The translations under genes were made by a program, and so were the position numbers. From assembly GCA_038121105.1 (NCBI GenBank), contig JAYONB010000001.1, forward strand, positions 354,429 through 418,428: 64,000 nt of DNA, written 5' to 3'. Positions within the stretch are counted from its first letter, which is position 1. Each line of letters starts with the position of its first letter. This DNA is from Alphaproteobacteria bacterium. GTDB taxonomy: Bacteria > Pseudomonadota > Alphaproteobacteria > SHVP01. Shown piece by piece: positions 801-58,577 of this stretch. The notes under the pieces are model-generated. The model had not been told where the DNA came from and did no database searches. It saw only the letters and a list, made by a program, of their open reading frames with translations.

Positions 801-1967
801 CTAGTAACTTTTGGGCAGCCCCAAGACGCGCTCGGCGATGTAGCACAGCAGGAGTTGCTGGCTGACCGGCGCGATGCGCGCGATCATGACTTCGCGCAGC
901 AATCGTTCGACGACGAATTCTTTGGCATAGCCGTACCCGCCATGGGTCAGGACGGCGCGCTCGCACGCGCGGTAGGCGACCTCGGCGGCGAGATATTTGG
1001 CGGCGTTGGCTTCGGCGCCGCAGGGCTGGCCGGCGTCGTAGAGTTGGGCTGCCTTGAGCATCAACAGATCGGCGGCTTCCAGTTCGGCCCAACTTTCGGC
1101 AAGCGGATGCTGGATGGCTTGGTTCTGGCCGATGGCGCGCCCGAAGACGATGCGTTCGCCCGCATACTTGGCCGCACGTTGGATGGCGTAGCGGGCAATG
1201 CCGATGGCCTCGGCGGCGACCAAAATGCGTTCGGGGTTGAGGCCATGCAGGAGGTAGCGAAAGCCCTCACCTTCTTCTCCGATCCGATCTTCGACCGGAA
1301 CCGGAAGACCATCGATGAACACCTCGTTGGAATCGACCGCCTTGCGGCCCATCTTGTCGATCTCGCGGACGGTGACGTAGTCGCGGTCCAGCGCGGTGTA
1401 AAACAACGAGAGGCCGTCGGTCGACTTGGCAACCTCTTCGCGCGGTGTTGTGCGGGCGAGCAGCAGCATGTGCGAGGCCGACTGCGCATTCGTCGTCCAT
1501 ACTTTGCGGCCATTCACGATGTAGGTCTTGCCGTCGCGCAGGGCTTTGGTCTTCAGGCTGCCGGTGTCGAGCCCGGCATCGGGTTCGGTGACGCCGAAAC
1601 AGGCGCGGTCGGTGCCGTCGATGATGGGCGGCAACATGCGGGCGCGTTGATCGTCTGTGCCGAAGACCGCGACCGGGTTGAGCCCAAAGATGTTGAGGTG
1701 AATGGACGAGGCCGCCGCAAAAGCGCCGGGGCCGCCGGCCACGGCTTGCATCATCAGGGCCGCCTCGGTGATGCCGAGACCGGCGCCGCCCTGGGCTTCG
1801 GGCATCGCGATGCCGAGCCATCCGTCGGCGGCCATGGCGTCGGCGAATTCCGCCGGGAAGCCGCCTTCGCGATCGCGGGCGAGCCAGTAGGTCTCGTCGA
1901 AGCAGGCCGCGATGCGTGCGACGGCCTCTTGCAGTGCGCGTTGATCGTCGCTGAGGAGGAAGTCCAT
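801..1967 (-). CDS. acyl-CoA dehydrogenase family protein
   Basis: 388 aa. Acyl-CoA dehydrogenase-like motifs (GVTEPDAGLDTGSLKTKA, YAGERIVFGRAIGQNQAIQHPLAE). Last gene of a minus-strand operon. Confidence 0.9.
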   Translation of the reverse strand: MDFLLSDDQRALQEAVARIAACFDETYWLARDREGGFPAEFADAMAADGWLGIAMPEAQGGAGLGITEAALMMQAVAGGPGAFAAASSIHLNIFGLNPVAVFGTDDQRARMLPPIIDGTDRACFGVTEPDAGLDTGSLKTKALRDGKTYIVNGRKVWTTNAQSASHMLLLARTTPREEVAKSTDGLSLFYTALDRDYVTVREIDKMGRKAVDSNEVFIDGLPVPVEDRIGEEGEGFRYLLHGLNPERILVAAEAIGIARYAIQRAAKYAGERIVFGRAIGQNQAIQHPLAESWAELEAADLLMLKAAQLYDAGQPCGAEANAAKYLAAEVAYRACERAVLTHGGYGYAKEFVVERLLREVMIARIAPVSQQLLLCYIAERVLGLPKSY

Positions 1968-1982
1968 GCGTGGTTCCAGCGC

Positions 1983-2915
1983 CTAGCGGCGTTTCGCTTT
2001 TTTGCGCACGGCTTTCTGGGTGGATTTGCGTTTGGGTGTCGTGCGCGCTTTGGTCGTCGCGGTCTTGACCGTCTTACGTTTGGTCGCCTTGGCTTTTTTC
2101 TTAGCGACCTTCTTTTTGGTCGTTTTCTTGGGTTTGCCTTTGGCGGCTTCGCGCTTTTCGTAGTTGGCGGCGGCACGCAGCATGGCGTGAATCATCCCCG
2201 ACTTTTCGACCATCGGTGCCGGGAAGGCTTGGCGGGAATGGGTATGGCCCAGGGCCAACATGGTTTCGACCATCTTGTAGGTCAGCGGACCGGGGTTCAC
2301 GACCGGGACCGGCAGGTTTTCGTTCAACCAAGTGCCGGCCTGATGCATCGTGGTGGAGCCCAGCAAGATGACATCGGCGCCCTTGGCAATCGCGCGCTCG
2401 GCGGCGGCCTTCATCAAGGGGAACATGTCTTCTTCTTTGCCGGTCATCAGTTTGGAGACGTCGGTCTTGCCGCCGCCGATCGGCTCGGCGGCGGCCATGA
2501 ACTGCGACAAGTTGCGCTGTTCGGCCCATTGCCAATGGTTGAAACACCCGGCTTCGTTCATCGCGAGAATCCCGAAGCGCGACCCCAGCATGAGGGCGTA
2601 GAGCATGGCCGTGCGGCCCGGCGCGACGACCGGGATATCGAGCACGCTGCGTAAGGCGCCGGCGGCCGAGTCGGATGTCGCGTCGATGACGACGGCGTCG
2701 TAACCCTCTTCTTGCGCCGTGAGGCCGGCTTCGAAGCAGCCGGCGTCCATCAAGAACCAATCGTGGTCGCTCATGAAGCTGGTGCAGCTCGCGCGCACCG
2801 GGCGGAAATCGAAATCGATGTCGGGGCCGAGCTTGACCGACTTGAGTTGCAGTTTGCGGTTGGCCACCCCTTCGTCGTCGAGGGGGAACGGCACGATCAC
2901 CAATCCTTTTGGCAT
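1983..2915 (-). CDS. Asp/Glu/hydantoin racemase superfamily protein (arylmalonate decarboxylase / maleate isomerase-like) with a Lys/Ala/Thr-rich C-terminal tail
   Basis: Track ORF 1983..2978 trimmed to the ATG at 2915, which follows AAAGGA. Core MPKGLVIVPFPLDDEGV...GSTTMHQAG fits the PF01177-type fold. The C-terminal ~60 aa are KGKPKKTTKKKVAKKKAKATKRKTVKTATTKARTTPKRKSTQKAVRKKAKRR. Confidence 0.75.
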   Translation of the reverse strand: MPKGLVIVPFPLDDEGVANRKLQLKSVKLGPDIDFDFRPVRASCTSFMSDHDWFLMDAGCFEAGLTAQEEGYDAVVIDATSDSAAGALRSVLDIPVVAPGRTAMLYALMLGSRFGILAMNEAGCFNHWQWAEQRNLSQFMAAAEPIGGGKTDVSKLMTGKEEDMFPLMKAAAERAIAKGADVILLGSTTMHQAGTWLNENLPVPVVNPGPLTYKMVETMLALGHTHSRQAFPAPMVEKSGMIHAMLRAAANYEKREAAKGKPKKTTKKKVAKKKAKATKRKTVKTATTKARTTPKRKSTQKAVRKKAKRR

Positions 2916-2949
2916 GGGGTTTCCTTTTGAACGCGCAGACGCGTCGAGA

Positions 2950-3942
2950 TTAGTCGAACAGATGAGCTTCTTCGACATGGCGGCGCACCGATTGCGCGAA
3001 CCAGTCGAAATGTTGCGGGCCGAATGACATGTGGCCGACGTAGTTAACCCCGTCGGACATGCCGCACATATAGCTGAACTCCTTGGAACACATGAAGAGC
3101 GGCAGGCAAGACCGTTCGAAGTCTTCGATCGGGCGGACTTCTTCGTAGCCCTGCATGAATGCGTTCGTCAGCGCCGGGGTCATACGCGTGTCGCCCTTGG
3201 ACAAGAAATAGCTATTGGCCCACGCAAGGCTGATGCAGTCATGGATGATGTGCGCCTCGCCACAGGTGTCGAAATCCAAAATCGTGAAGTCGCCGTTCGG
3301 CGTAACGAACACATTCTTGACATGAACATCGCCGTGCAGCGGCCCGTAGGGCACACCGGCGGCGTAGGCCGCTTCGAGTTTGTCCGGCAAGACCGCGGCG
3401 ACGCGCTGGTAGAACGCCAGGTCCTCGGGGCGTTCATCGAGGCGCGCTGCGAGGTGCGGAAACTTGCGGCGGATTTCGCCCGGGAAATCGATGGGACGGG
3501 CGGTCTTGCCCTTAAAATCGGCGCCGGCGAGGTGAACCTGGGCGACGGCGCCGCCGATACGACGGGCCAGCGGTTCGCTGGGGTCGGCGTAAAACTGATC
3601 CCCCTCGGCCCATTCGAACAGGCATACACGGCGGCTCCCCTCCGGCGCATCGATGCCAAAGGAAAGATCACCCGCTTTGTCGGGGATCGCGGCGATAACG
3701 GGGACGCCCTTGTTCTTGAGGTGGGCGAGGTAGTCGAGCTCCCAGGTGACGTTGTCGGCGGTGTGCTTGTCGGCCCGCCAGACGCGGGCGGCGAAGCTGT
3801 CGGCGCCCGATTTGACGAGGTAGACGTCATTCATGCCGCGCGTGATGAGTTCGCAGCGGAACGGCGTCGGTAAATCCCAGCGCGTCCGGATCTCTTCGCC
3901 GAGCGCTTCGTTGTCGACCACCGAGTGGCGAATTGGAAACAT
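2950..3942 (-). CDS. phosphotransferase (APH/choline-kinase-like) family protein, paralog 1
   Basis: 330 aa. ATG at 3942 follows GGAGG. Brenner/APH-like motifs HGDVHVKNVF and ILDFDTCG. Colinear with the ORFs at 25001..25990 and 29041..30030. Confidence 0.85.
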   Translation of the reverse strand: MFPIRHSVVDNEALGEEIRTRWDLPTPFRCELITRGMNDVYLVKSGADSFAARVWRADKHTADNVTWELDYLAHLKNKGVPVIAAIPDKAGDLSFGIDAPEGSRRVCLFEWAEGDQFYADPSEPLARRIGGAVAQVHLAGADFKGKTARPIDFPGEIRRKFPHLAARLDERPEDLAFYQRVAAVLPDKLEAAYAAGVPYGPLHGDVHVKNVFVTPNGDFTILDFDTCGEAHIIHDCISLAWANSYFLSKGDTRMTPALTNAFMQGYEEVRPIEDFERSCLPLFMCSKEFSYMCGMSDGVNYVGHMSFGPQHFDWFAQSVRRHVEEAHLFD

Positions 3943-4502: not shown

Positions 4503-5210
4503 ATGGCCCATCATGACGTTGTTCAAACCGAGGATTGGCTAAACGCGCGCAAGGTTCTGCTGCAGAAAGAAAAGGAATTCACCCGCGCACGCGATGCCCT
4601 GAGCGCCGCGCGGCGCGCCCTACCGTGGCGCCAAGTGGACAAGGATTACGTTTTCGACGGTCCCGACGGCAAATAACGTCTGGCGGCGTTGTTCGACGGG
4701 CGCAGCCAATTGCTGATCTATCATTTCATGTTCGATCCGACATGGGACGAGGGCTGCAAGAGCTGTTCGTTCATTGCCGATCACTACAACCCGGCCGTCG
4801 TGCATCTGGCGCAACGCGACGTGACGCTGGTGACGGTGTCCAAGGCGCCCTTGGAAAAGCTACAGGCCTTTCGGGATCGCATGGGTTGGTCGTTCAAATG
4901 GGTGTCGTCGTTCGAGAACGACTTCAACCGCGACTTCGGCGTGTCGTTCAGCCAAGAGGAGGTCGACGGGGGCAAGGCGCATTACAACTATGCAGACCGA
5001 GGCTTTCCGACTACCGAGGCACCGGGCTTGAGCGTTTTCGTCAAGGACGATGGCGGGCAGGTGTTCCATACCTATTCAAGCTATGGCCGTGGGCTCGATA
5101 TGTTTCTGACGGCCTATCACTATCTCGACGTCGTGCCGAAGGGACGCGACGAGGATGCCCTGCCCTATTCCATGGGTTGGGTTCGGCTGCACGATGCCTA
5201 CGGCACCTGA
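4503..5210 (+). pseudogene. DUF899 thioredoxin-like protein gene interrupted by a single in-frame TAA (4675..4677)
   Basis: ATG at 4503 gives MAHHDVVQTEDWLNARKVLLQKEKEFTRARDALSAARRALPWRQVDKDYVFDGPDGK, then TAA, then the same frame continues RLAALFDGRSQLLIYHFMF... (track ORF 4689..5210). The combined 235 aa match the DUF899 layout (EW...AR..LL..EKE.TR..D....R..LPW......Y.F....G...L..LF.GRSQL..YHFMF) with no frameshift. Confidence 0.6.
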
Positions 5211-5224
5211 GGCCGCCGCCGCCG

Positions 5225-7060
5225 CTAGGCGTAGAGCGCGGCGATTTCGTTTTCGTAGGCTTGGGTGATTTTGGCGCGGCGAATTTTCATGGTGGCGGTG
5301 ACCTCGCCGTCGTCATGGTCGAGTTCTTTGGTCAGCAGGTGGAACTTTTTGATCTGCTCGACGCTGGCGAGACGTTGGTTTTCGCGATCGACCTCGCGCT
5401 GGATCAACTCGCCCACGGCCGGATGTTCTACGAGCGCCCGAAACGTGGTGTAGGCAAGACCTTTGCCATCGGCCCAGTTGGCCACCATGTCGAAATCGAT
5501 CTGAATAAGAGCGGTGACGAAACGCCGACCGTCGGCCACGACGATGCATTCTTTGATGTAGGGGCTCGCCTTCATGGTGTTTTCGATCAGGCTGGGAGTG
5601 AGATTTTTACCGCCGGCGGTGATCGCAACATCCTTTTTTCGATCGATAATCGAGACCGAGCCGTCGGGAAACATCTCGGCGATATCGCCCGTGTGAAGCC
5701 AACCGTCTTGTAAGGCCTCTTTCGTAGCTTCTTCGTTGCGGTAGTAGCCCGCAAATACGCAGCCGCCGCGAATGAGCAGTTCGCCGTCGTCCGCGGTTTT
5801 CATGTCGATGCCGTCAAGCGGCGCGCCGATGCGACCCTCGAGCTTTTGCTCGCGCCGTTGGATGGCGCACGCACCCGCCGTCTCGGTCATCCCGAATCCC
5901 TCCATCAGCGGCACGCCGAGGCCGCGGAAGAATTTGAGGGTTTCGATCGCGACCGGGGCTGCGCCCGAGACCGCAATCTTGCAGCGCGTGAGGCCGAGCG
6001 CATTGCGCAACGGGCGGTAGGCCAGCGGTTCCCAAAGCGCGCGGCGCAAACGGTCGCTTAGGCTGTAATCGGTTTTCCACGGTTCGTCGAAACGGTGGGC
6101 GTCTCGCAAGGCGAGCCCCAGAACCAGCCGTTGGAGGGGTCCGGCAGTGCGCGCGCGGATCAATACTTCGGCGCGCATTTTCTCCCAGATGCGGGGCACG
6201 CCGAGGAAAATCGTCGGCGCGATTTCGCGCAAGTCCGACTGCACGGTGCGTAGGCTTTCGCCGAAGCTCACGGCGTAGCCAGCGTTCATCGCGAGAAAGA
6301 CCGAAAACAGCTGCTCGGCGACGTGGCAAAGCGGCAAATAGGAGACGGTAGAATCGTTGTCGGTTTGGCCGATATTCCGTGCCGAGGCCTCGCCCACGAA
6401 GGCGATGTTGCGGAACGTAATCAGCGCGGCCTTAGGCAAGCCGGTCGAGCCCGAGGTGCCGACGATGAGCGCCACGTCGTCGGGATCATGCGCGTGTAGC
6501 GCCCGGTCGAGGAATTCGGGATCATGCCGCGCAGCCTCGGCGCCGCGCGACATGACGTCGGCGTAGGCGATGAGATCGTCGTCGTCGTACCCGGCGAGCC
6601 CCTTGCTCTCGATAAAGATGATGTGGCGAAGGTTGGGTAGCCGGTCCTTGATCTCGAGCACCTTGTCGACTTGTTCTTGGTCCTCGCAGATCACCGCCTT
6701 GGCCTCGACGAGATCGAGGACGTGCAGGATTTCCGGTGCTGGGGACGTTGGATAGACGCCCGCGGTCACCACGCCCGCCATGTGCATGCCCAACTCTGAA
6801 ATCAGCCATTCCTGTCGGTTCTCCGACAGCACCGCGATGTGATCGCCGCGCTGATAGCCCAACGCCACCAAACCTTGGGCAAAATGACCGACGGCGCGTT
6901 CGTAGTCCGCCCAAGTAAGTTCGTTCCAAATGCCGAAACGCTTTTGGCGCAAGGCCGGGGTGTCGGGGCGGTTGCGCGCATGGGCGCGCAGCAAGCGCGG
7001 CAAGGTGCGCACCTCCGGCGCGATTTCGGCGTCGATGTCGATTTGTTCGGCGATGGCCAT
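5225..7060 (-). CDS. long-chain-fatty-acid--CoA ligase (AMP-dependent synthetase/ligase)
   Basis: 611 aa. AMP-binding motif LIVGTSGSTGLPKAA, then GYGMTE-like and C-terminal ligase motifs. Directly downstream of the Liv-type ABC transporter genes on the same strand. Confidence 0.9.
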   Translation of the reverse strand: MAIAEQIDIDAEIAPEVRTLPRLLRAHARNRPDTPALRQKRFGIWNELTWADYERAVGHFAQGLVALGYQRGDHIAVLSENRQEWLISELGMHMAGVVTAGVYPTSPAPEILHVLDLVEAKAVICEDQEQVDKVLEIKDRLPNLRHIIFIESKGLAGYDDDDLIAYADVMSRGAEAARHDPEFLDRALHAHDPDDVALIVGTSGSTGLPKAALITFRNIAFVGEASARNIGQTDNDSTVSYLPLCHVAEQLFSVFLAMNAGYAVSFGESLRTVQSDLREIAPTIFLGVPRIWEKMRAEVLIRARTAGPLQRLVLGLALRDAHRFDEPWKTDYSLSDRLRRALWEPLAYRPLRNALGLTRCKIAVSGAAPVAIETLKFFRGLGVPLMEGFGMTETAGACAIQRREQKLEGRIGAPLDGIDMKTADDGELLIRGGCVFAGYYRNEEATKEALQDGWLHTGDIAEMFPDGSVSIIDRKKDVAITAGGKNLTPSLIENTMKASPYIKECIVVADGRRFVTALIQIDFDMVANWADGKGLAYTTFRALVEHPAVGELIQREVDRENQRLASVEQIKKFHLLTKELDHDDGEVTATMKIRRAKITQAYENEIAALYA

Positions 7061-7070
7061 TGTTCTTGCC

Positions 7071-7867
7071 CTAGCTCAGCCAGCGCTTGCGGCGCTTGTA
7101 GTGTTTGACGTCGCGAAAGGACTTGGTTTCTGCCCCACCGATGCCGAGGTAGAACTCGCGCACGTCGTCGTCGTTGCGCAGCTTGTCGACATCGCCTTCG
7201 ATCACCACCCGACCGTTCTCCAGGATATAGCCGTAGTGGGCATGCGAAAACGCGACGTTGGCGTTTTGCTCGACCAGCAATATCGTGGCGCCGCGTTCTT
7301 CGTTGATGCGCGAGATGGTGTCGAAGATTTCGAGTACCAGTTTGGGCGCAAGGCCGAGCGAGGGTTCGTCAAGCAGCACGATCTCGGGCTTGCCGATTAG
7401 CGCGCGTCCGAGCGCCAGCATTTGCTGTTCGCCGCCGGACAAATAGCCTGCGAGCTGGGTGCGACGTTCCTTGAGGCGGGGGAATAAATCGTAGATGTCG
7501 TCGAAATCGGCATGTGCGTTTTTGCGCCCGGTCAGGGCATAGGACGCAGCGACCAAGTTGTCCTGCACGGTAAGGTCGGCAAAGATTCGTCGCCCTTCGC
7601 GCACGTGCCCCATCCCGCGCCGCACCAAGGTGTGGGGCTCGTCGCGCAACACCGAACGGCCCCCGAAAGTGATATCGCCGTCGGTGACCTCGCCATTTTC
7701 GAGCGGCAACAATCCGGAGATCGCTTTCAACGCCGTGGTCTTGCCGGCACCGTTCGAGCCGAGCAGCGCGACGACCTTGCCTTCGGGCACGTCGAAGGAC
7801 AGGCCGCGCAGCGCCTGCACCACGCGATGGTAGTAGACCTCGATATTATTGACGCTCAGCACGCGTC
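7071..7867 (-). CDS. branched-chain amino acid-type ABC transporter ATP-binding protein (LivF-like)
   Basis: Track ORF 7071..7997 trimmed to the GTG at 7867, which follows AGAGGGA. Walker A GSNGAGKTT, signature LSGGEQQ, Walker B LLLDEP. Short basic C-terminal extension. Confidence 0.8.
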
Positions 7868-30831: not shown

Positions 30832-31793
30832 CCCACTTGGTCACGCTGGCGGAGATCCAAACCGCGCACGATCATTTGCCCGACATCATCCGGCGTACGC
30901 CCATTGTACCGCTGGCGCGCACAGCAGCCGAGGTCGGCCACGAGGCGCTGTTCTTGAAACTAGAGAACCTGCAAGTGACGGGCGCCTAAAAGGTACGGGC
31001 TGCGTTCAACATGATCCGGGTTTTGGGGCCCGAAAACCTCAAACGTGGATTGGTCCTGACCTCGTCGGGCAATTTCGCGCAGGCCTTCGCGCTGGCGGGA
31101 CGCATGTTCGGCGTACCGATCGTGGTCGTGATGATGGACCGCACCAGTCCGTTCAAGGTCGAGGCGGCGCGCGGCTATGGAGCGGAGGTGGTGTTCTGCG
31201 GCGACGACGCCCTAGCGCGCCAACCGACCGCCGAACGGCTCGCCGCCGAACGCGGGATGACGGTGATCGATACCTGGGAAGAACGCCCCATCCCGGCCGG
31301 GCATGGCAGCATCGGGCTGGAGTTGCTGGAACAAGCGCCCAACATCGAATGCGTGCTGGCACCGGTCAGCAGTAGTGGGTTGATCGCGGGGGTCGCCACC
31401 GCCATCAAGGAAAGCGCGCCGCATGTGTCGGTGATCGGCGTGCAGCCCGAATGCGCGAACGCGGCCTATGTGTCCCGCCAAAAGGGCGCGCCAACGACAA
31501 TCGACTATTGGGACAGCATGGCGGACGGACTATCGGCGGTGCGGCCCGGGGCGTTTCCGTTTGCCCATGTGCAGCGCTATGTCGACGACATCGTATTGGT
31601 GAGCGAAGGCGAGATCGCAGACGCGTTTCGCACACTGTTGTTTCGCGGCAAGGTATTGGGCGAACCGGCCGGTGTCGTCGCCGCGGCAGGATTTCTGTCG
31701 GGCAAGGTGGCGCAAGATCGGAAGACGGTGGCCTTGTTGACCGGCGGCAACGTCGTGCCCGAGGTGGCGCAACGGCTGTTGGCGAACGCCTAG
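30828..31793 (+). pseudogene. PLP-dependent serine/threonine dehydratase-family gene with an in-frame TAA (30987..30989) immediately before the PLP-lysine codon
   Basis: ATG at 30828 (overlapping the pncA stop, ATGA) gives MTHLVTLAEIQTAHDHLPDIIRRTPIVPLARTAAEVGHEALFLKLENLQVTGA, then TAA, then KVRAAFNMIRV... continuing in the same frame into track ORF 31011..31793. The expected family motif is ...LQ.TG(S/A)(F/Y)K.RGA..., so the stop replaces the residue before the catalytic Lys. Confidence 0.6.
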
Positions 31794-32587
31794 CTTTTCT
31801 TTTTCTTGGCGGCGGCTTTGCGGAATTGCGGTTTGCGCTTGGCGCGAAAGGCGCGCTCCCCTTCCCGTCCCTCGGGCGAATCGTAGTAAAGGCGGACCGC
31901 GATGTTGCCGAGGTTGGACAGCCCGCGAATGGACTCGGTCTCGGCGTTGAACGCTCGCTTGCCGAGCGCAATCGCCGTCGGGCTCATTTGCAGTATTTCG
32001 TCGCACCAGCGACGCACTTCGGCATCGAGTTGGGCATCGGGCACGACCGCATTCACGAGGCCCATCTCCATTGCCTCTCGTGCCGAATATTGACGACACA
32101 GGAACCAAATCTCTTTGGCCTTTTTTTGCCCGACATGGCGGGCCAGCAGGTTGGTGCCGAAGCCTGGATCGATCGAGCCCATCTTGGGCCCGACCTGACC
32201 GAATACCGCGCTCTCACCGGCGATGGTGAGGTCGCAAATCGTAGCCAGGACGTTGCCGCCGCCGATGCACCAGCCGCGCACCTTGGCGATCACCGGCTTA
32301 GGCGCGTCGCGCATGATTGCGTGAAGTTCTTCGACAGGCAGACCGATCGTGCCGCGCCCGTCGTAGGCGCCGTCATGCGCACCTTGGTCGCCACCGGACG
32401 AGAACGCCTTGGTCCCCGCACCGGTCAGGACAATAACGCCAATGTCGTCGTTCCATGCAGCCCTGTTGAAAGCATCGACCATTTCTTCGCAGGTTTGCCC
32501 CCGAAAGGCGTTGTGCACGCGCGGCCGATTGATGGTGATCGTCGCGACGTTCTTGCGGACGGCGTATTTGATGTCTTTGTAGGCCAC
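31790..32587 (-). CDS. crotonase-superfamily enzyme, MenB/BadI-like (1,4-dihydroxy-2-naphthoyl-CoA synthase / 2-ketocyclohexanecarboxyl-CoA hydrolase-like)
   Basis: 265 aa. AFSSGGDQ and CIGGGNVL motifs. Lys-rich C-terminal end. 1 nt downstream of the acyl-CoA ligase gene. Confidence 0.8.
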   Translation of the reverse strand: MAYKDIKYAVRKNVATITINRPRVHNAFRGQTCEEMVDAFNRAAWNDDIGVIVLTGAGTKAFSSGGDQGAHDGAYDGRGTIGLPVEELHAIMRDAPKPVIAKVRGWCIGGGNVLATICDLTIAGESAVFGQVGPKMGSIDPGFGTNLLARHVGQKKAKEIWFLCRQYSAREAMEMGLVNAVVPDAQLDAEVRRWCDEILQMSPTAIALGKRAFNAETESIRGLSNLGNIAVRLYYDSPEGREGERAFRAKRKPQFRKAAAKKKKS

Positions 32588-34148: not shown

Positions 34149-34305
34149 GGGGCGCAGTGTTGCGGTGCATCACGCAACGTGCAACCCCGGTCGACGCATC
34201 GTGCCAGCCACCACGGCTTGGGCGGAACTAAGAACCCTTCGCATCTCTGACCCTTGGACCTAGAATTGCAGTCGACGGGGCATATCGCCCTCTTGGGAGG
34301 AACCG

Positions 34306-35847
34306 ATGAAACGATTGTTTAAACGTGCGAGTGCAACCGCCCTCGCCGCCTCTGTAGCTTTTGGTGTTTTGGGAACCGCTCAGGTTGCGCAGGCGCAAGA
34401 CAAGGTATTGCGTGTGGCGCATTACGGGTTCAACCCGCAAAAAGGTCGCTTCGAGATGGCGTTCGGCGCACAGTCCACCCTGCCGCTGATGGCTTTTGCC
34501 GATAGCATGACCTATCTCAATCCGAACGGCTCGGTTGATCCGGGTCTGGCGACCTCGTGGGAAGTCAAAGACGACACGACCTGGATATTCAAAATCCGTC
34601 AGGGCGTGAAATTTCATAACGGCGCACCGATGACCGCCGAACAGGTCGTTAAGAACGTCGAGTTCCTCGTCAACGACGACGCCGGCAAGACAAGCATCTC
34701 GTCGCGGTTCCTGGGGCTTGCGGGCGCCAAAAAGATCGACGCCAATACCGTCGAGATTACGACTAAAAACCCCAATCCAATTCTCGACCGGTGGTTCGCA
34801 TTGTTCCGGATTATGGACGCGGACTATCAGAAAGACGTCGGGATCGAAGGATTCACGGTGAAACCGATCGGCACCGGACCGTTCAGAGTTACGAATTGGA
34901 CGGGCGAAGCGATGGCGGCCGAGAAATTTGCCGATGCGTGGCGACCGGCCAAAGTCGACCGGCTCGAAATCACCGCCCTCACCGAGACGGCGGCGCGCGT
35001 TGCCGCGCTTCAGTCCGGTCAGGTCGATATCGCCTGGTTGGTAAGCCCCGACGACATCGCCCGGCTCGATAGCGCCGGTAAGAAGGTGCAGATCACCCAG
35101 AACTTCGAAGTCGTTTCGTTCAAGTTCAACACAATTCCCGAACGCACGACGGCCGACAATTCGCCGATCTTGGACCGGCGCGTCCGGCAGGCGATCAACT
35201 ACGCAATCAATCGCGATCAATACGTCAAGGAAGTGCTGGGCGGGCTCTATGTCACCGCTGGGCAGTCCGCCGCCAGCACCGTCGCGGGCCACCAAGACGA
35301 CATCAAACCGTATCCCTACGATCCGGAGCGCGCCAAGAAGCTGCTGGCCGAGGCCGGTTACGGCGACGGATTGAACCTGGTGATGGAGTTGATTCCGACC
35401 TCGACGGATTACACCAACACCTCGCAGTTCATCGCCACCAGCTTGCAGCGGGTCGGGATCAATCTCGAACTGCGGCAAATCGCGCTTGCCGACTTGTTGG
35501 GCAAGTTGCGCGGTCAAAAACCCTGGGACGGGCACATGTGGATGGGACTGGTCGAGTCCTTCCCGACCGGCGACGTGATGCGCCCCTTTGCGACAGACTC
35601 GTGCGCGTTTTTCGGCGCATTCATCTGTGACAAGGATATCCAGCCGACCATCGACGCGGCAAACACCGAATTCGACCCGGCGAAACGGGCCGAACTGGTG
35701 CGCAAAGTCGTCAAGCATTACCACGACGAAGCGTTGATTTCGTACATGTACGAGCGCACCGTCATCGACGGGCTCGCATCCAATGTGAAGAACTACCGTC
35801 TGTTCAACCGTGCGATCAATTGGCACGAAATCGAACTCGGCGGTTAA
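34306..35847 (+). CDS. ABC transporter substrate-binding protein, family 5 (orphan; paralog of 13808..15337)
   Basis: 513 aa. Signal-peptide-like MKRLFKRASATALAASVAFGVLGTAQVAQAQ. Family-5 SBP pattern. Confidence 0.85.
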   Translation: MKRLFKRASATALAASVAFGVLGTAQVAQAQDKVLRVAHYGFNPQKGRFEMAFGAQSTLPLMAFADSMTYLNPNGSVDPGLATSWEVKDDTTWIFKIRQGVKFHNGAPMTAEQVVKNVEFLVNDDAGKTSISSRFLGLAGAKKIDANTVEITTKNPNPILDRWFALFRIMDADYQKDVGIEGFTVKPIGTGPFRVTNWTGEAMAAEKFADAWRPAKVDRLEITALTETAARVAALQSGQVDIAWLVSPDDIARLDSAGKKVQITQNFEVVSFKFNTIPERTTADNSPILDRRVRQAINYAINRDQYVKEVLGGLYVTAGQSAASTVAGHQDDIKPYPYDPERAKKLLAEAGYGDGLNLVMELIPTSTDYTNTSQFIATSLQRVGINLELRQIALADLLGKLRGQKPWDGHMWMGLVESFPTGDVMRPFATDSCAFFGAFICDKDIQPTIDAANTEFDPAKRAELVRKVVKHYHDEALISYMYERTVIDGLASNVKNYRLFNRAINWHEIELGG

Positions 35848-35896
35848 CGCCTTACGTCCCCGGGGGCCTTGCGCCCTCGGGACGCTTTTGCGTCCG

Positions 35897-36571
35897 CTAG
35901 CGGCGCATCGCCAAAAAGTCGCCGAGCGAGCGACCCTCGACCTCATCGAACTTCTCCGTGCGCCGGACCAATTGCTCCATCCGATCCAAGCGGAAGCTGC
36001 GAAAATCGTCGCGTGTTTCGCACCAAGCGACCAGCGTCCACGCATATCCCCAATAGAATAGGCCGAGCGGATGCACCGTGCGGCTGGTGGTTTCCCCGTC
36101 GGCACGGGTGTAACGAAAATCGAGCTTGTAGCGATCGTTCACCGCGCGTCGCGTGACCGCGAGGTTCGACGTGACGGCCGTGTCGGGCATGATGCGCGGT
36201 GCGAACAGGGCGCTTTCGACAATGTTGTTGCGTAGCGGTTCGGGCAGCACCGCTTCTATTTTGGTCAGCGCGCTATGCGCAGCCGAGGCGAGGTCGGGAT
36301 CGGTCCAGCTTTGCACGATTCGGGAACCCAGGATCAGGGCCTCGATTTCTTCGGCGTTAAACATTAAAGGCGGAAGATCGAACTTGCGATCCAGAGTGTA
36401 GCCGACGCCCGCCTCGCCGGTGATCGGGACGCCGGTCACGACGAGATCGCTGACGTCGCGATAGATGGTGCGTTCCGAGACTTCGAGTTCTTCGGCAAGC
36501 TGTGCCGCCGTCATGAAACGGCGCGACCGCAGCATCTGGATAATTTCGAAAAGACGATCGGCGCGACGCAT
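35897..36571 (-). CDS. YafY-family transcriptional regulator (HTH plus WYL domain)
   Basis: 224 aa. N-terminal HTH (RFMTAAQLAEELEVSERTIYRDVSDL) and central WYL-like region (LDFRYTRADGETTSRTVHPLGLFYWGYAW). Confidence 0.8.
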   Translation of the reverse strand: MRRADRLFEIIQMLRSRRFMTAAQLAEELEVSERTIYRDVSDLVVTGVPITGEAGVGYTLDRKFDLPPLMFNAEEIEALILGSRIVQSWTDPDLASAAHSALTKIEAVLPEPLRNNIVESALFAPRIMPDTAVTSNLAVTRRAVNDRYKLDFRYTRADGETTSRTVHPLGLFYWGYAWTLVAWCETRDDFRSFRLDRMEQLVRRTEKFDEVEGRSLGDFLAMRR

Positions 36572-54524: not shown

Positions 54525-57500
54525 CTATAGCCGCGCGCGGGTGACCCGACAGGTCTGACCGTCCGCGATGAGACGGGCGCATATCGAAAGCGCATTGATT
54601 TCCGTAAACGGACCGACCAGCAACGGACGCTTATCGGCAACCGGGTCGGCACTTTGAAGCGGACGGGCACTTTGCAAAACGTCGGGGTAAAGACGGCGCA
54701 TCAACTGCCAGCCTGCATCGACGCCGGTTTGCGATCCGTACTCGCCAAGGCGGACCGCAACGACCGTCTCGGCCGGGGTGTCAGACACGGCATCGGCGGT
54801 TTCTTCGATTGCCGGCAATGGTGCTTTCTCCACAGGCCACACCGGCTCGGCCGCAACCACAGGCCCGATGGGACGTAGACCGGGTAGTGGTGCGGGGGCT
54901 TTCGTATCCGCAGCCGCCATCGGTGTGTCCGTCACGATCGGTTTTGCGTCGCAGCGCGGGACGCTGCTGCCAAGTTGTACGCACAACGCCTCACTTCCTT
55001 CCCGCGTCAACGGGCCGACCTGCAATACCTCGGGGTCAACGCCGGATTGACGGTCCGCGCCTTCTAAGTCCGCCGCATAGAGCCGGCGCAATAACGACCA
55101 CGCGATATCGGCGCGATCCGCTGTGGGATAGCGGCCGAGGTCGACGATGACTGGAACATCCGTAGAGAAATCGATCGGCCCCTCCGTGGCGGTCGGGGCA
55201 TTTATTTCACCGGATACAGCTTCAATCGAAGACGGCAACAGAACCGGCGGCTCGGGAACATAAGGAAACCCGACAACGTCGCATGAAATATTGGTTGCCT
55301 TGAGCCGTGCGCAAACCGTCTCAGCGGCAGCAGGCGAAAGGCGGCCTAGTGTAAGGTCGAAGGGTCCAGCCTGCTGGTCGAGCGGTGTCTCAAGCGCAAG
55401 GCTCCCTAAGAGTTCCGGATAAAGCTCACGGTAAATCGCCACCGAAGCGCGGGCGCTTTCCGGGGTGGGGAATAGCCCCAACCGAACTGCCGCTAACTTT
55501 AGATCGGCCGGTGGCGGCAGCGTCAGACCGGGTCGGCCGGTCACAATTTGAACTCCCAAGATCGGATCGGCTTCGGGGGTAACCGGCACCGGAATCCGAC
55601 GCGGCGCGGGGACGACTAGCCCTTGAGTCGCAACGTTTTCGGGAGAGAGCTGGATCGTATAGTCACCGGGAAACACATTCACAAAGAGGAAGAAACCATC
55701 GAAGAGCGTTTGATCGGTGCTGACCACTTCGCCCTGGCTGTTTCGCAACTCGACCGTCACCCCCGGAAGCGGTGATAGTTCGGCGCCTTCATCGAGGAGC
55801 GCGACGACCGACCCCTCGATCTCGGTTGTGAGCGCAACCGGGAAATCGATGGTATTTGTCCGACCCGGACGCGGTAACACCGACCGCCCTGTAACCAACG
55901 GCGCGAGGAATGGATCCGGCAACGAACCCGGCCGAACGCGAACATCAGTTAATAGGTACGGCGGCAGTCGCTTGACGAACGCAATTCCCTCCTCGTTGGT
56001 ATCATCCGACTTGTTCGCTTGTACCGCCTCGACCCGAACATCCGGCAACAACTCCTCGCCCGGATCGAGCTGGCGGTTCAGGTTCTCGTCGCGAAAGACA
56101 CGGGCAGCAACCGCGCCGCCACCGGTAAAGGTCGACCCTGCAGTCTCCACGCGCCCAGAGAAAGGTTCTCGACCCGCGGCAAACGAAAGGCTCAACAATG
56201 CGAAGAACTGGTTGTTCGAATCGTATGTCAACGTGGGACTCAGGATGAAGCGATCGAACCGATAGCTTCCGCCTAAGCTATAGGCCTTACGTTGCGACAA
56301 TAGGAAGCGCTGATATCCAAGTCGGGCTTGCGATCTATTGTTGATCGTCCAATTGATGTCGCCATCAACTCGCTGCAATTGACGCGTCTCGATCAGACGG
56401 TAGCTGGCGCCAAGCCGAAAGTTGACGGGAGACACAAAAACGGAGTTCTGCACCGTTCCGGTAAGGGAACGCTGCTGGTTCGCCGAGGGAAGATCTAAGC
56501 GGGCCCATTCCAATGTATTCGACAATCGAAAGCGACCGAGCCCTGTACTGTTGCTTAGTCGAGCACTATCCGAAACCGTACCGGTCTCGGAGACAATCCG
56601 GCTCGCTGACGCAGTATAGGGAAGCTCGAAGGCGCCGATGATCGGGATATCCCCGGAAGCCGATACACTAAACCCGTTGGCGTTGGACGGACCCGAAGCC
56701 TGCGTGGTCTCGAATCGCAATCCAACTGACTGGCCACCATACGATGTCCGGTATTCAGCAGTCGCATTCCACCCCGAATCAAATGATGTGGTTGTACCTA
56801 GACTCGCCACACCGTCAAACAAAGGCGAACTCACTGCCGCATCGAGACTACCAGTGCTCGGCCTACCGGTATCAACAAAGGAAAGACCGGCAGATGCGGA
56901 TACTCCGTTCGAAAAACTGCGCTGCACATTGACCGCGCTTGCGAGCGGTCCCGGCTCCTGCGAAACCGGCTCAAGTGGAATCAGAGGTTCGCCGGGTTTG
57001 AATATTGCAGCCGAATATGTCGGCAAATTCGTTAACCTGCCGACCGACGTGACGGTTCGTGACGCCCGTTCCTCACGGATCTCGCCTTGTGTTCCGTAAA
57101 AGACGAGACGGAACTCGTTGTCCCCCAACACCAAAGGTACGTCACGAAATTCGTAACGGCCGTCGTCCCCTACGGTTTGGAGATCCTGCAAAATTCCGTT
57201 GCGGTATAGCTCGATGTCAGTTCCCGGTTGTTCGGTACCGACGAAGTCAGTCGTCGTCCCAAGATTTTGAATTCCAGTTGTGTTATTTGTGATGAACCCC
57301 CCGATTCCCGTGCCTCCAACGGGCAGGCCCGGCGCAATGACATCACCCACCTCGACGCGAGTTGCCTGAAGCGGCCCTAGGAGGCCACCAGTCGGGTCCT
57401 CGCGACGGAGGGTTAGCCGCGCTGAATTGAAAAGGTCATCTCGATTCCCACTCAGGAAGAATTCACCGGTTGCTAGCCCAAGATCCCCACGGCCGACAAC

Positions 57501-58577
57501 TGAATAGTTCTGTGTTGTCCGGAGCTCCTGACCCGGCACATCAAGCAAGGAAGACTGAAGACGCACGTCTGCAAAAGGCCAGTCGATTGCGCGGTACGGA
57601 TCGTCGATGCGCGGCAGCGATGGTTCGTTTCGCCGTGCTCGACGCACGCCGGCGATCCGTCGCTGCCGCTCAAGCCTTTGTTGTAACGGAATCGGTGTTT
57701 CAGGAACTACGCTGACGACAAGGTCTCGAAAATCAACATCCAAGCGCACACTGAACCAAATCGCGAATACATCGCTGTGAACAAGGATCGAGTCATCCAG
57801 ACGTCGTACATCGTTGGCGACAACTTCAATTGTTTCTCCCTCGATCGTCACGATCCCCGCATTGAGGTCAAGTGCGAAGGTGTTCTCTGGATTGATGAAG
57901 AAACCAGAAGCTGTGCCGCTCGGGGCATCGACGTCGATCGCGAACTCAAGGAGTTCAACGGCTTCCCCAAGGTCGACTAGAATTCCGTCGCCCTGTTTGA
58001 CCCCAAACAGAGACTGGAGGAACCGTCGGTTGTCGATCCGGACCTCGAAAATCAGTTCTTCGCCATCCGGTATTCCTGATTCATCGTCTGCAAGCGTCAG
58101 AGCCGAAACTGTTGTTTCCGCTTCTACCTCGACGAGTGGAGCCTCGAGCAAAGGGCCGCGGAGTCGCCTGACAAATTCAGTCGCAAGGTTCTTGCGAACC
58201 TCGTCTTGCGTTTCCTTGGTATCGGTGATGGCCAACAAACGTCGGGCCAAGTCAGCCTCGGGGCCAGTGACCGGGGCTAGGTTCGTTGATGGCACCGCCG
58301 GCTGAATCGTATCGGCGGGAATGAGGGGCGCCGAACTGACTGGAGGAACAAGCGGCCTGGTGTCAGCAATCACCGGAGCGTCGCTTTCCGGCGAAGCATC
58401 CCCTGCTCCAGCCGAAGGGCCAGCTTCTTGTCCGTCAGGAAGTCGTTTGAGAAATTCCTCGAGTAGTGGGGTTAGGTCGCTGGTCTGTTGAGCAATCGCA
58501 GTCTCGGCGCCAAGCGACAAGCCGGAAATCGAGACGCCCACCGCCGCAACAAGACGCTGGAGGTATGAAAGGCACAC
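54525..58577 (-). CDS. chaperone-usher pathway outer-membrane usher homologue (1350 aa) with an N-terminal extension and three C-terminal SPOR-like repeats
   Basis: GTG at 58577, 9 nt after GGAGG. Signal peptide present. Usher N-terminal-domain-like region, then the plug motif FVGTEQPGTDIELYRNGILQDLQTVGDDGRYEFRDVPLVLGDNEFRLVFYGTQGEIREERASRTVT. A long S/T/G/N-rich amphipathic beta-barrel stretch ends ...LLSLSFAAG. A PapC-C-like region follows (VTVELRNSQGEVVSTDQTLFDGFFLFVNVFPGDYTIQ). Then come three ~75-aa repeats (LG.F/Y...A....L.RRLYP.L...VGPF......C..L.....C.V) resembling SPOR domains. Confidence 0.8.
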   Translation of the reverse strand: MCLSYLQRLVAAVGVSISGLSLGAETAIAQQTSDLTPLLEEFLKRLPDGQEAGPSAGAGDASPESDAPVIADTRPLVPPVSSAPLIPADTIQPAVPSTNLAPVTGPEADLARRLLAITDTKETQDEVRKNLATEFVRRLRGPLLEAPLVEVEAETTVSALTLADDESGIPDGEELIFEVRIDNRRFLQSLFGVKQGDGILVDLGEAVELLEFAIDVDAPSGTASGFFINPENTFALDLNAGIVTIEGETIEVVANDVRRLDDSILVHSDVFAIWFSVRLDVDFRDLVVSVVPETPIPLQQRLERQRRIAGVRRARRNEPSLPRIDDPYRAIDWPFADVRLQSSLLDVPGQELRTTQNYSVVGRGDLGLATGEFFLSGNRDDLFNSARLTLRREDPTGGLLGPLQATRVEVGDVIAPGLPVGGTGIGGFITNNTTGIQNLGTTTDFVGTEQPGTDIELYRNGILQDLQTVGDDGRYEFRDVPLVLGDNEFRLVFYGTQGEIREERASRTVTSVGRLTNLPTYSAAIFKPGEPLIPLEPVSQEPGPLASAVNVQRSFSNGVSASAGLSFVDTGRPSTGSLDAAVSSPLFDGVASLGTTTSFDSGWNATAEYRTSYGGQSVGLRFETTQASGPSNANGFSVSASGDIPIIGAFELPYTASASRIVSETGTVSDSARLSNSTGLGRFRLSNTLEWARLDLPSANQQRSLTGTVQNSVFVSPVNFRLGASYRLIETRQLQRVDGDINWTINNRSQARLGYQRFLLSQRKAYSLGGSYRFDRFILSPTLTYDSNNQFFALLSLSFAAGREPFSGRVETAGSTFTGGGAVAARVFRDENLNRQLDPGEELLPDVRVEAVQANKSDDTNEEGIAFVKRLPPYLLTDVRVRPGSLPDPFLAPLVTGRSVLPRPGRTNTIDFPVALTTEIEGSVVALLDEGAELSPLPGVTVELRNSQGEVVSTDQTLFDGFFLFVNVFPGDYTIQLSPENVATQGLVVPAPRRIPVPVTPEADPILGVQIVTGRPGLTLPPPADLKLAAVRLGLFPTPESARASVAIYRELYPELLGSLALETPLDQQAGPFDLTLGRLSPAAAETVCARLKATNISCDVVGFPYVPEPPVLLPSSIEAVSGEINAPTATEGPIDFSTDVPVIVDLGRYPTADRADIAWSLLRRLYAADLEGADRQSGVDPEVLQVGPLTREGSEALCVQLGSSVPRCDAKPIVTDTPMAAADTKAPAPLPGLRPIGPVVAAEPVWPVEKAPLPAIEETADAVSDTPAETVVAVRLGEYGSQTGVDAGWQLMRRLYPDVLQSARPLQSADPVADKRPLLVGPFTEINALSICARLIADGQTCRVTRARL

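Follow-up and report, generated by a model that had tools for sequence, protein, structure and literature searches.

The stretch of DNA analysed here, referred to as the window, comprises 64,000 nucleotides of an alphaproteobacterial genome (GenBank assembly GCA_038121105.1, contig JAYONB010000001.1, positions 354,429 to 418,428 of the forward strand). Close to its left end lies a complete coding sequence on the minus strand (1983..2915), recognised from the list of open reading frames (ORFs), the sequence itself and a match to the Pfam family PF01177, which encodes a racemase-like protein of 310 residues ending in a polycationic C-terminal tail. The ORF runs from an ATG at 2915..2913 to a TAG stop codon at 1985..1983. 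An alternative upstream ATG at 2978 would give a longer reading with 21 extra codons; however, the orthologues all begin MPKGLVIVPF (or MHKG/MHRG), an AAGGAA Shine-Dalgarno-like site read from the sequence (2926..2921, minus strand) ends 5 nucleotides (nt) before the ATG at 2915, and the 21 extra codons would overlap the 3' end of the preceding gene. The start was therefore placed at 2915 and not at 2978.

The product falls into two parts. Residues 1-257 (2145..2915, minus strand) form a folded core with an allantoin/hydantoin-racemase-like two-domain α/β fold, as judged from an AlphaFold2 (AF2) model, Foldseek matches and alignments. Residues 258-310 (1986..2144, minus strand) form the tail, which is defined by its composition and low predicted local distance difference test (pLDDT) scores together with the in-frame indels, substitution ratios and simulation described below. 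It emerges from the final predicted helix of the protein (residues 239-259, MIHAMLRAAANYEKREAAK; 2139..2201, minus strand; assigned by DSSP on the AF2 model). Its last ten residues, the decapeptide KAVRKKAKRR (1986..2015, minus strand), are its best-conserved part in protein and DNA alignments and in the tree. A Leu/Phe-rich ORF on the opposite strand (2002..2163, plus strand) was read as a mirror image of the Lys codons rather than a gene.

The 53 residues of the tail include 21 Lys (40%), ten Thr (19%), eight Ala (15%), six Arg (11%), three Val and two Pro (4%), with no Asp or Glu and no Phe, Trp, Leu, Ile, Met or Tyr, giving a net charge of +27 or ~0.5 charge per residue. Given a background Lys frequency of 2.8% in the window, the binomial probability of this Lys count is ~3e-19, and a scan of all six frames of the 64 kb found the tail to be the sole Lys-rich stretch. 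The tail is a real feature at these coordinates and lies far beyond chance. The Lys-rich sequence quoted in the first-pass annotation corresponds exactly to residues 259-310, in frame with the core. In the AF2 model, which was built from a 26-sequence alignment, pLDDT falls below 50 over residues 265-310 and secondary structure is absent after residue 259, which predicts that the tail is intrinsically disordered. Its mean hydrophobicity is -0.56 and its maximum helical hydrophobic moment 0.38. With neither acidic nor large hydrophobic residues and with hydrophobicity at this level, a soluble polyelectrolyte fits the tail better than an amphipathic membrane anchor, and an amphipathic membrane helix was ruled out on the absence of hydrophobic residues. 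The isoelectric point (pI) of the whole protein is 9.9, compared with ~5.4 once the tail is removed, and the core carries a charge of -7.

At the DNA level, the local G+C fraction falls to 0.55 at the tail, in a genome of 61% G+C, and A is in marked excess on the coding strand, with an AT skew reaching -0.82. The Lys codons are AAA and AAG in a ratio of 14:7 in the tail versus 4:8 in the core. Ribosome sliding is known on long poly(A) tracts; the longest A-runs counted by eye in the sequence are 6 nt, which is too short for it. Tandem Repeats Finder, run over 1900..2300 with a minimum score of 30, returned no DNA repeat in the tail, and an origin from a DNA microsatellite was ruled out on this absence of tandem repeats. 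A reading of the KRKP and PKRK motifs as a nuclear localisation signal was also rejected, since the tail genes lie in bacterial operons and the eukaryotic homologues are tail-less.

Could such a tail be an artefact, produced by a sequencing or assembly error or by read-through into non-coding DNA? Low-complexity composition and the local G+C fraction were the sole prior reasons to think so. Against this, the exact 310-residue protein recurs in independent assemblies of several samples, on 24 or more contigs in all; among the sources are Logan SRR26337541 and SRR35789755 and ENA ERZ27313074 and ERZ27313062. Moreover, 2837 relatives were retrieved from 5.8 billion proteins, and all of the closest clusters (11 or 12, depending on the count; 79-94% overall identity) end in Lys/Ala-rich tails of 43-55 residues with net charges of +17 to +30. 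Five species-representative genomes have tails of this kind as well. An internal-deletion variant, P0006, carries the window protein's own tail. Tails were also found in uncultured Alphaproteobacteria metagenome-assembled genomes (L006, L007, L008 and L010) in a scan that used one genome per GTDB species, and contigs L001-L003, obtained for the relative P0002, are likewise tail-bearing. The first-pass annotation had asked whether orthologues in related genomes carry the tail, and had allowed that they might lack it and that a sequencing error might account for it. Indeed, all close orthologues carry the tail, and the doubt was not borne out.

The tail also evolves as a coding sequence. In the DNA alignment, the tail indels between orthologues measure 3, 6, 15 and 21 nt, all multiples of three, and numerous tail differences are synonymous AAA/AAG changes. 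The ratio of non-synonymous to synonymous substitution (dN/dS; Nei-Gojobori method, NG86) is 0.07-0.43 for the tail in all measurable pairs but one (L001-L007, 0.84), and 0.01-0.10 for the core, with dS from 0.4 to >1 in these comparisons. When the tail DNA was evolved neutrally through 0.4-1.0 substitutions per site, without indels, the runs that kept an open frame with at least 20 Lys plus Arg and no Asp or Glu amounted to 0.09%, 0.005% and 0%. Between orthologues with 88-98% identity in the core, identity in the middle of the tail drops to ~50-70%, and orthologue tails end in ...KKA(K/R)RR. Recurrence of the exact protein, the tails of orthologues, the in-frame indels, the dN/dS values and the neutral simulation together establish that the tail is coding and under purifying selection, mainly on its composition and on the conserved end. 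Sequencing error or read-through as the origin of the tail, to which a negligible probability was assigned, is excluded. ORF, orthologues and in-frame indels likewise agree with the earlier statement that the tail follows on from the racemase-superfamily core without a frameshift.

The core itself was described in the first-pass annotation as a normal Asp/Glu/hydantoin-racemase core. Its fold and superfamily stand. PF01177 (Asp/Glu/hydantoin racemase) matches residues 55-212 with E=7e-21 and 75.4 bits, against a gathering cut-off of 31. The AF2 model of the core has pLDDT values mostly between 80 and 95, and its best solved matches in Foldseek are the allantoin racemases 3qvk, 3qvj and 5lg5 and the hydantoin racemase 2eq5, with target-normalised template modelling (TM) scores of 0.82-0.84 (best chain per entry), E=1e-15 to 1e-12, probability 1.00 and 20-25% identity. 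Both the profile and the two-domain fold, with its inter-domain cleft, place the protein in the PF01177 superfamily. The word 'normal' does not stand, for in a HMMER alignment to 2eq5 and 3qvj both catalytic Cys positions are occupied by other residues, Ala79 and Ser187. Among 26 aligned family members position 79 is Ala, Ser or Thr, and Ser187 is invariant, as are D78, D82, S83, T188, T189, H191 and Q192. The corresponding motifs of the window protein are IDATSDS and LGSTTMHQ (family forms ID(A/S/T)xxDS and LGSTT(M/L)HQ). The features of a two-thiol racemase, namely a Cys pair with one Cys per domain and CFGDPG-like and LGC(G/A)GM-like motifs, are missing, and the neighbouring genes (APH kinase, acyl-CoA dehydrogenase, DUF952, DUF899, AMP-ligase and ABC transporter) reveal no association with purine, allantoin or hydantoin utilisation.

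Judged from these alignments, the core is racemase-folded but not a canonical two-thiol racemase, and because both Cys residues are replaced the label of allantoin or hydantoin racemase should not be applied to it. The allantoin racemases HpxA (3qvj/3qvk) and AllR (5lg5) and the hydantoin racemase 2eq5 have the same fold and belong to the same Pfam family; the window core differs from them in having its own invariant motifs and no adjacent allantoin or hydantoin genes, and, unlike the window protein, the solved racemases have no C-terminal tail. The branch without catalytic thiols accounts for at least 598 pattern-matched stretches in species-representative genomes, 596 of which were confirmed by tblastn, and this large uncharacterised branch of the racemase superfamily is of interest in itself. 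The core family carries the database names 'allantoin racemase' and 'HupH', which are probably wrong.

A neighbour-joining tree built from 114 core sequences, with the tails mapped on it, places the long tails in a single clade. The nearest tail-less relatives, P0012-P0016 (77-84% identity), end directly after the last helix, and the cores of tail-less close relatives are equally acidic, at -8 to -13. At least four other branches have shorter basic tails, which are 9-21 residues long, carry net charges of +5 to +9 and in most cases finish with RR or KR; these branches are represented by P0017, P0018 and P0019, by P0020, P0026 and P0027, by P0081, P0083 and P0089, and by P0093. The genomic contexts of the short-tailed relatives are unrelated to each other and include, for example, a TRAP transporter or an EamA gene. 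A basic C-terminus is a recurrent trait of the family, which the clade of the window protein has enlarged about five-fold, and recurrence of the short tails in at least four branches suggests a family-linked benefit. An apparently wider spread of long tails, in which distant loci seemed to match the query to residues ~295-310, was discarded when ORF extraction resolved the extra matches into adjacent tandem paralogues.

Several further features of the family were observed. Most of the distant relatives are encoded by two adjacent paralogous genes (L011, L024, L025, L030, L087 and ~25 other loci), and fused two-copy proteins of 511-512 residues were also found (P0029, P0030 and P0036); adjacent paralogues and fusions suggest a hetero-oligomer. 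The long-tail clade has a single gene copy at the window-type locus. Four homologues of 64-65% identity (P0021, P0025, P0028 and P0054) have N-terminal extensions of 65-130 residues containing a coiled-coil-like segment, such as LEREIEALQREQARI, and no basic C-terminal tail. P0025 comes from the EukProt eukaryotic collection and the other three come from Logan/ENA metagenome assemblies; these extended homologues may represent a horizontally acquired, organelle-targeted copy. Finally, P0006 is the window protein minus a clean internal stretch of 20 residues (ETMLALGHTHSRQAFPAPMV) late in the core, with the tail intact, and could be either an assembly artefact or a natural deletion allele.

The tailed gene is flanked on both sides by genes in the same orientation. 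Upstream lies an APH-family phosphotransferase gene (2950..3942, minus strand; PF01636, E=5e-23), whose stop codon precedes the start of the racemase-like gene by 34 nt. Downstream lies a gene for an acyl-CoA dehydrogenase (ACAD; 801..1967, minus strand) with the Pfam ACAD N, M and C domains, and its ATG is 15 nt past the stop codon of the tail. No terminator-like site was found on the minus strand between the racemase-like and ACAD genes. The APH-racemase-ACAD order is kept in every long-tail genome and is absent from all others among 85 loci compared. All tail-bearing loci also have, a few kb upstream, genes for an AMP-dependent ligase and a branched-chain-type ABC transporter. The APH kinase has a net charge of -14 and the ACAD one of -12 per subunit. 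One variation on this arrangement was found in L007, where an ORF of 234 residues (6900..7604) lies between the racemase-like and ACAD genes; its ATG overlaps the TGA stop codon of the racemase-like gene (ATGA), and its product begins with a hydrophobic, signal-peptide-like stretch. The tail is retained there with the ACAD gene 700 nt away.

Among solved structures, the ACAD is closest to generic short- and medium-chain ACADs; for the APH protein, the only matches are weak ones to homoserine, aminoglycoside and amicoumacin kinases. An LvaA/LvaC- or ACAD10/11-type 4-hydroxyacyl-CoA kinase/eliminase operon is unsupported by these relatives. Phosphorylation of the Thr-rich tail by the neighbouring kinase was likewise rejected, since Thr is not conserved (1-10 per tail). 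Further downstream, ~2 kb away and just past the left edge of the window, lies a PF17645 'Amdase' gene (L001 and L088).

The tail was then compared with known polycationic tails. The C-terminal domain of linker histone H1 is ~40% Lys, the remainder being Ala, Thr/Ser and Pro; it has no acidic residues and is disordered. The window tail resembles this domain in composition, in its lack of acidic residues, in predicted disorder and in a single (S/T)PKK-like motif, TPKR. It has only half the H1 domain's length and shows no homology to it, and the window protein has neither a winged-helix globular domain nor a match to PF00538. Measured against the features of H1/AlgP-PhaF-type tails as a class, composition, charge and predicted disorder are present, and tandem repeats and sequence homology are not. 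The description 'histone-H1-like' in the first-pass annotation can therefore be kept for composition and predicted disorder, and has to be given up where it would imply a repeat unit or homology to H1, HU, AlgP or any Pfam family. By sequence or repeat structure, the tail belongs to none of the H1, AlgP, PhaF, Ku, TopA or Ppk1 families. What is found is a known type of appendage on a new host, a small-molecule-enzyme fold, with good evidence of selection.

The best functional analogue, as an enzyme with a polycationic targeting tail, would be the polyphosphate kinase Ppk1 of Caulobacter crescentus, whose 22-residue basic C-terminal tail is needed for co-localisation with polyphosphate (polyP) granules and is absent from the E. 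coli orthologue (PMC3806658). Like the window protein, Ppk1 is an alphaproteobacterial enzyme with a highly basic, lineage-specific C-terminal extension (PMC3806658). Its tail is 22 residues long compared with ~53 in the window protein, and it synthesises the polyanion that it binds, whereas the window protein has no known link to polyP. This precedent, together with the short basic tails within the same family, qualifies the earlier remark that such a tail is unusual on a metabolic enzyme, which is otherwise fair.

In Pseudomonas, the H1-like C-termini of AlgP (+55) and PhaF (+35) are Lys/Ala-rich, disordered, DNA-binding and associated with polyP or polyhydroxyalkanoate granules (PMC9239181; PMC12818456); in AlgP, DNA is bound by the KPAA tail, and the granules are those of polyP (PMC9239181). 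PhaF has also been reported to bind RNA. These C-termini share with the window tail a Lys/Ala-rich, cationic and disordered character, the disorder of the latter being predicted. They consist, however, of regular KPAA/AAKP tandem repeats over 150-200 residues on structural or regulatory N-domains, whereas the window tail is repeat-less, contains little Pro (4%) and much Thr (19%), spans 53 residues and sits on an enzyme-fold core.

More generally, Lys-rich low-complexity regions of prokaryotes show an enrichment in proteins that bind DNA, among them histone-like proteins, topoisomerases and Ku (PMC6821194). In actinobacteria, both Ku and topoisomerase I have Lys-rich PAKKA C-terminal tails (PMC3553676; PMC5714199, cited in PMC6821194). 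These are lineage-specific low-complexity tails that modulate DNA affinity on a catalytic or DNA-handling core. Their hosts already act on DNA, whereas the host of the window tail is a small-molecule-enzyme fold, and the PAKKA repeats are not seen in the window tail. DNA or polyP binding by the window tail, as proposed in the first-pass annotation, would be expected by analogy with these systems; its further suggestion of binding to CoA-thioester-rich surfaces found no support.

A predicted disordered segment with +27 over 53 residues, and with neither acidic nor hydrophobic residues, would behave as a strong polyelectrolyte and associate with cytoplasmic polyanions. On this polyelectrolyte nature and on the literature on comparable tails, the most likely role of the tail is that of a non-specific electrostatic tether, which would attach the protein without regard to sequence to an abundant polyanion, be it nucleoid DNA, RNA and ribosomes, or polyP granules. 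Belief and doubt are about evenly balanced in this proposal, in which both the ligand and the physiological consequence are argued from analogous proteins. The tail would probably have grown by expansion of the short basic C-terminus (...KAKRR) that appears sporadically in the family. Tethered in this way, the racemase-like enzyme would be localised, concentrated or immobilised, and the same may apply to the proteins encoded by the flanking APH-kinase and ACAD genes.

Several results weigh against a polyanion tether. The tail has no match to Pfam at E<=1; a word-indexed search with the tail through the 5.8 billion proteins gave 46 candidates, none of which scored; and a phmmer search of 1.84 billion representatives returned a single match, P0121, a eukaryote-like GKPKKTTKKKVIKRK repeat protein judged to be spurious. 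By eye, TPKR is the only (S/T)PKK-like motif in the tail, and no KPAA/PAKKA-type repeat is present. The tail-less relatives P0012-P0016 evidently function without a tail. There is no evident reason for the racemase-like protein to sit on nucleic acid or polyP, and the window ORFs that were scanned included no gene related to the nucleoid or to polyP.

The alternative that asks least of the tail is a generic physico-chemical role with no specific ligand, in which it would act as an 'entropic bristle' for solubility, shift the pI from ~5.4 to 9.9 or shield the C-terminus against proteases. Such a role would sit well with selection on composition and not on sequence, as seen in the divergent tail middle, with the variable tail length (43 to 55 residues) and with a mildly acidic core inside a protein of high pI. 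However, +27 far exceeds the needs of solubility, and polyanion binding would follow from it in the cell anyway; the tail-less close relatives, with equally acidic cores, show no apparent need for compensation; and the conserved KKA(K/R)RR end hints at more than bulk charge. A purely generic role is thus regarded as fairly unlikely. Slightly less probable again is peripheral attachment to phosphatidylglycerol or cardiolipin on the inner face of the cytoplasmic membrane, which would bring the enzyme near the products of the upstream ABC transporter and acyl-CoA ligase genes present in all tail-bearing loci. Electrostatic binding to acidic lipids is within the capacity of polybasic tails, and Lys-rich regions of other enzymes, NmPin for example, reportedly mediate membrane association. 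Bacterial membrane-targeting sequences are, on the other hand, usually amphipathic, and the tail has no hydrophobic or aromatic anchors, its helical hydrophobic moment never exceeding 0.38 at a mean hydrophobicity of -0.56.

Contacts with other proteins, in which the tail would bind the APH kinase, the ACAD or its own core and so assemble or regulate a pathway complex, would explain why the long tail and the APH-racemase-ACAD order co-occur in one clade and nowhere else among the 85 loci, and both neighbours are acidic. Most cytosolic proteins are just as acidic, however, which makes such an attraction unspecific; the short basic tails occur beside entirely different neighbours; and the tail is kept in L007 despite the ORF inserted before the ACAD gene. 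Protein contacts are accordingly considered improbable. By far the least probable of these four is a constraint at the RNA level, in which the A-rich stretch, being unstructured, would enhance or couple translation of the downstream gene and the peptide would be a by-product. The proximity of the ACAD start to the tail's stop codon with no terminator between, the A-rich coding strand and the preference for AAA in the tail, which is reversed in the core, would all accord with it. A constraint of this kind would not preserve the reading frame, yet all tail indels are multiples of three and dN/dS is below 1; moreover, the tail persists where the ACAD gene is 700 nt off, and the downstream genes of the short-tailed relatives are unrelated.

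The electrostatic tether can be extended to a more specific and much more speculative proposal, in which the racemase-fold protein, having lost the canonical Cys pair and acquired an H1-like polycation, binds small molecules or catalyses in an atypical way and is specifically directed to a polyanionic compartment without a membrane (nucleoid or polyP granules); in this precise form it is rather unlikely. If the protein formed oligomers, as the solved racemases do, each would display several +27 tails, which could cross-link polyanions or nucleate a condensate, and such a condensate would concentrate a pathway of APH kinase, racemase-like protein and acyl-CoA dehydrogenase. The result would be either a bacterial metabolic enzyme compartmentalised by a histone-like tail or a ligand-sensing, nucleoid-associated pseudo-enzyme. 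Polycationic disordered tails are known on nucleoid proteins, on DNA- and RNA-handling enzymes and on polyphosphate kinase, and have rarely been documented on small-molecule-enzyme folds. If the tail does target the nucleoid or polyP granules, it would constitute a simple, evolvable route to sub-cellular organisation of metabolism in bacteria, as well as a compact and portable targeting tag.

Other parts of the window yielded some minor observations. The gene for a DUF899 (thioredoxin-like) protein (4503..5210, plus strand) is interrupted by an in-frame TAA at 4674..4676, where the L001 orthologue has CAA (Gln). The resulting split (57 or 48 plus 173 residues) recurs in the independent contigs L088-L090, and it is a real nonsense allele or pseudogene of this population and not an error. 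Selenocysteine recoding was rejected here, as the stop codon is TAA in place of a CAA codon. An ORF of 625 residues (34231..36105, minus strand) with no Pfam match overlaps an ORF of 513 residues on the opposite strand, and one of 1350 residues (54528..58577, minus strand) has CarboxypepD_reg and SdrD_B-like matches, all of them sub-threshold. Finally, a MenB/crotonase-family protein (31790..32587, minus strand; PF00378, E=4e-64) has a Lys-rich C-terminal extension of ten residues (...KRKPQF-RKAAAKKKKS). This ending is common only to a 95%-identical relative, L092 (RKAAAKKKR); among more remote relatives, those in which a C-terminal motif can be recognised mostly have ends of the ...FPR(LP) type (SKFPRLP/SKYPRLP/SRFPR). 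A second Lys-rich C-terminus within the same 64 kb may reflect a tendency of the lineage.

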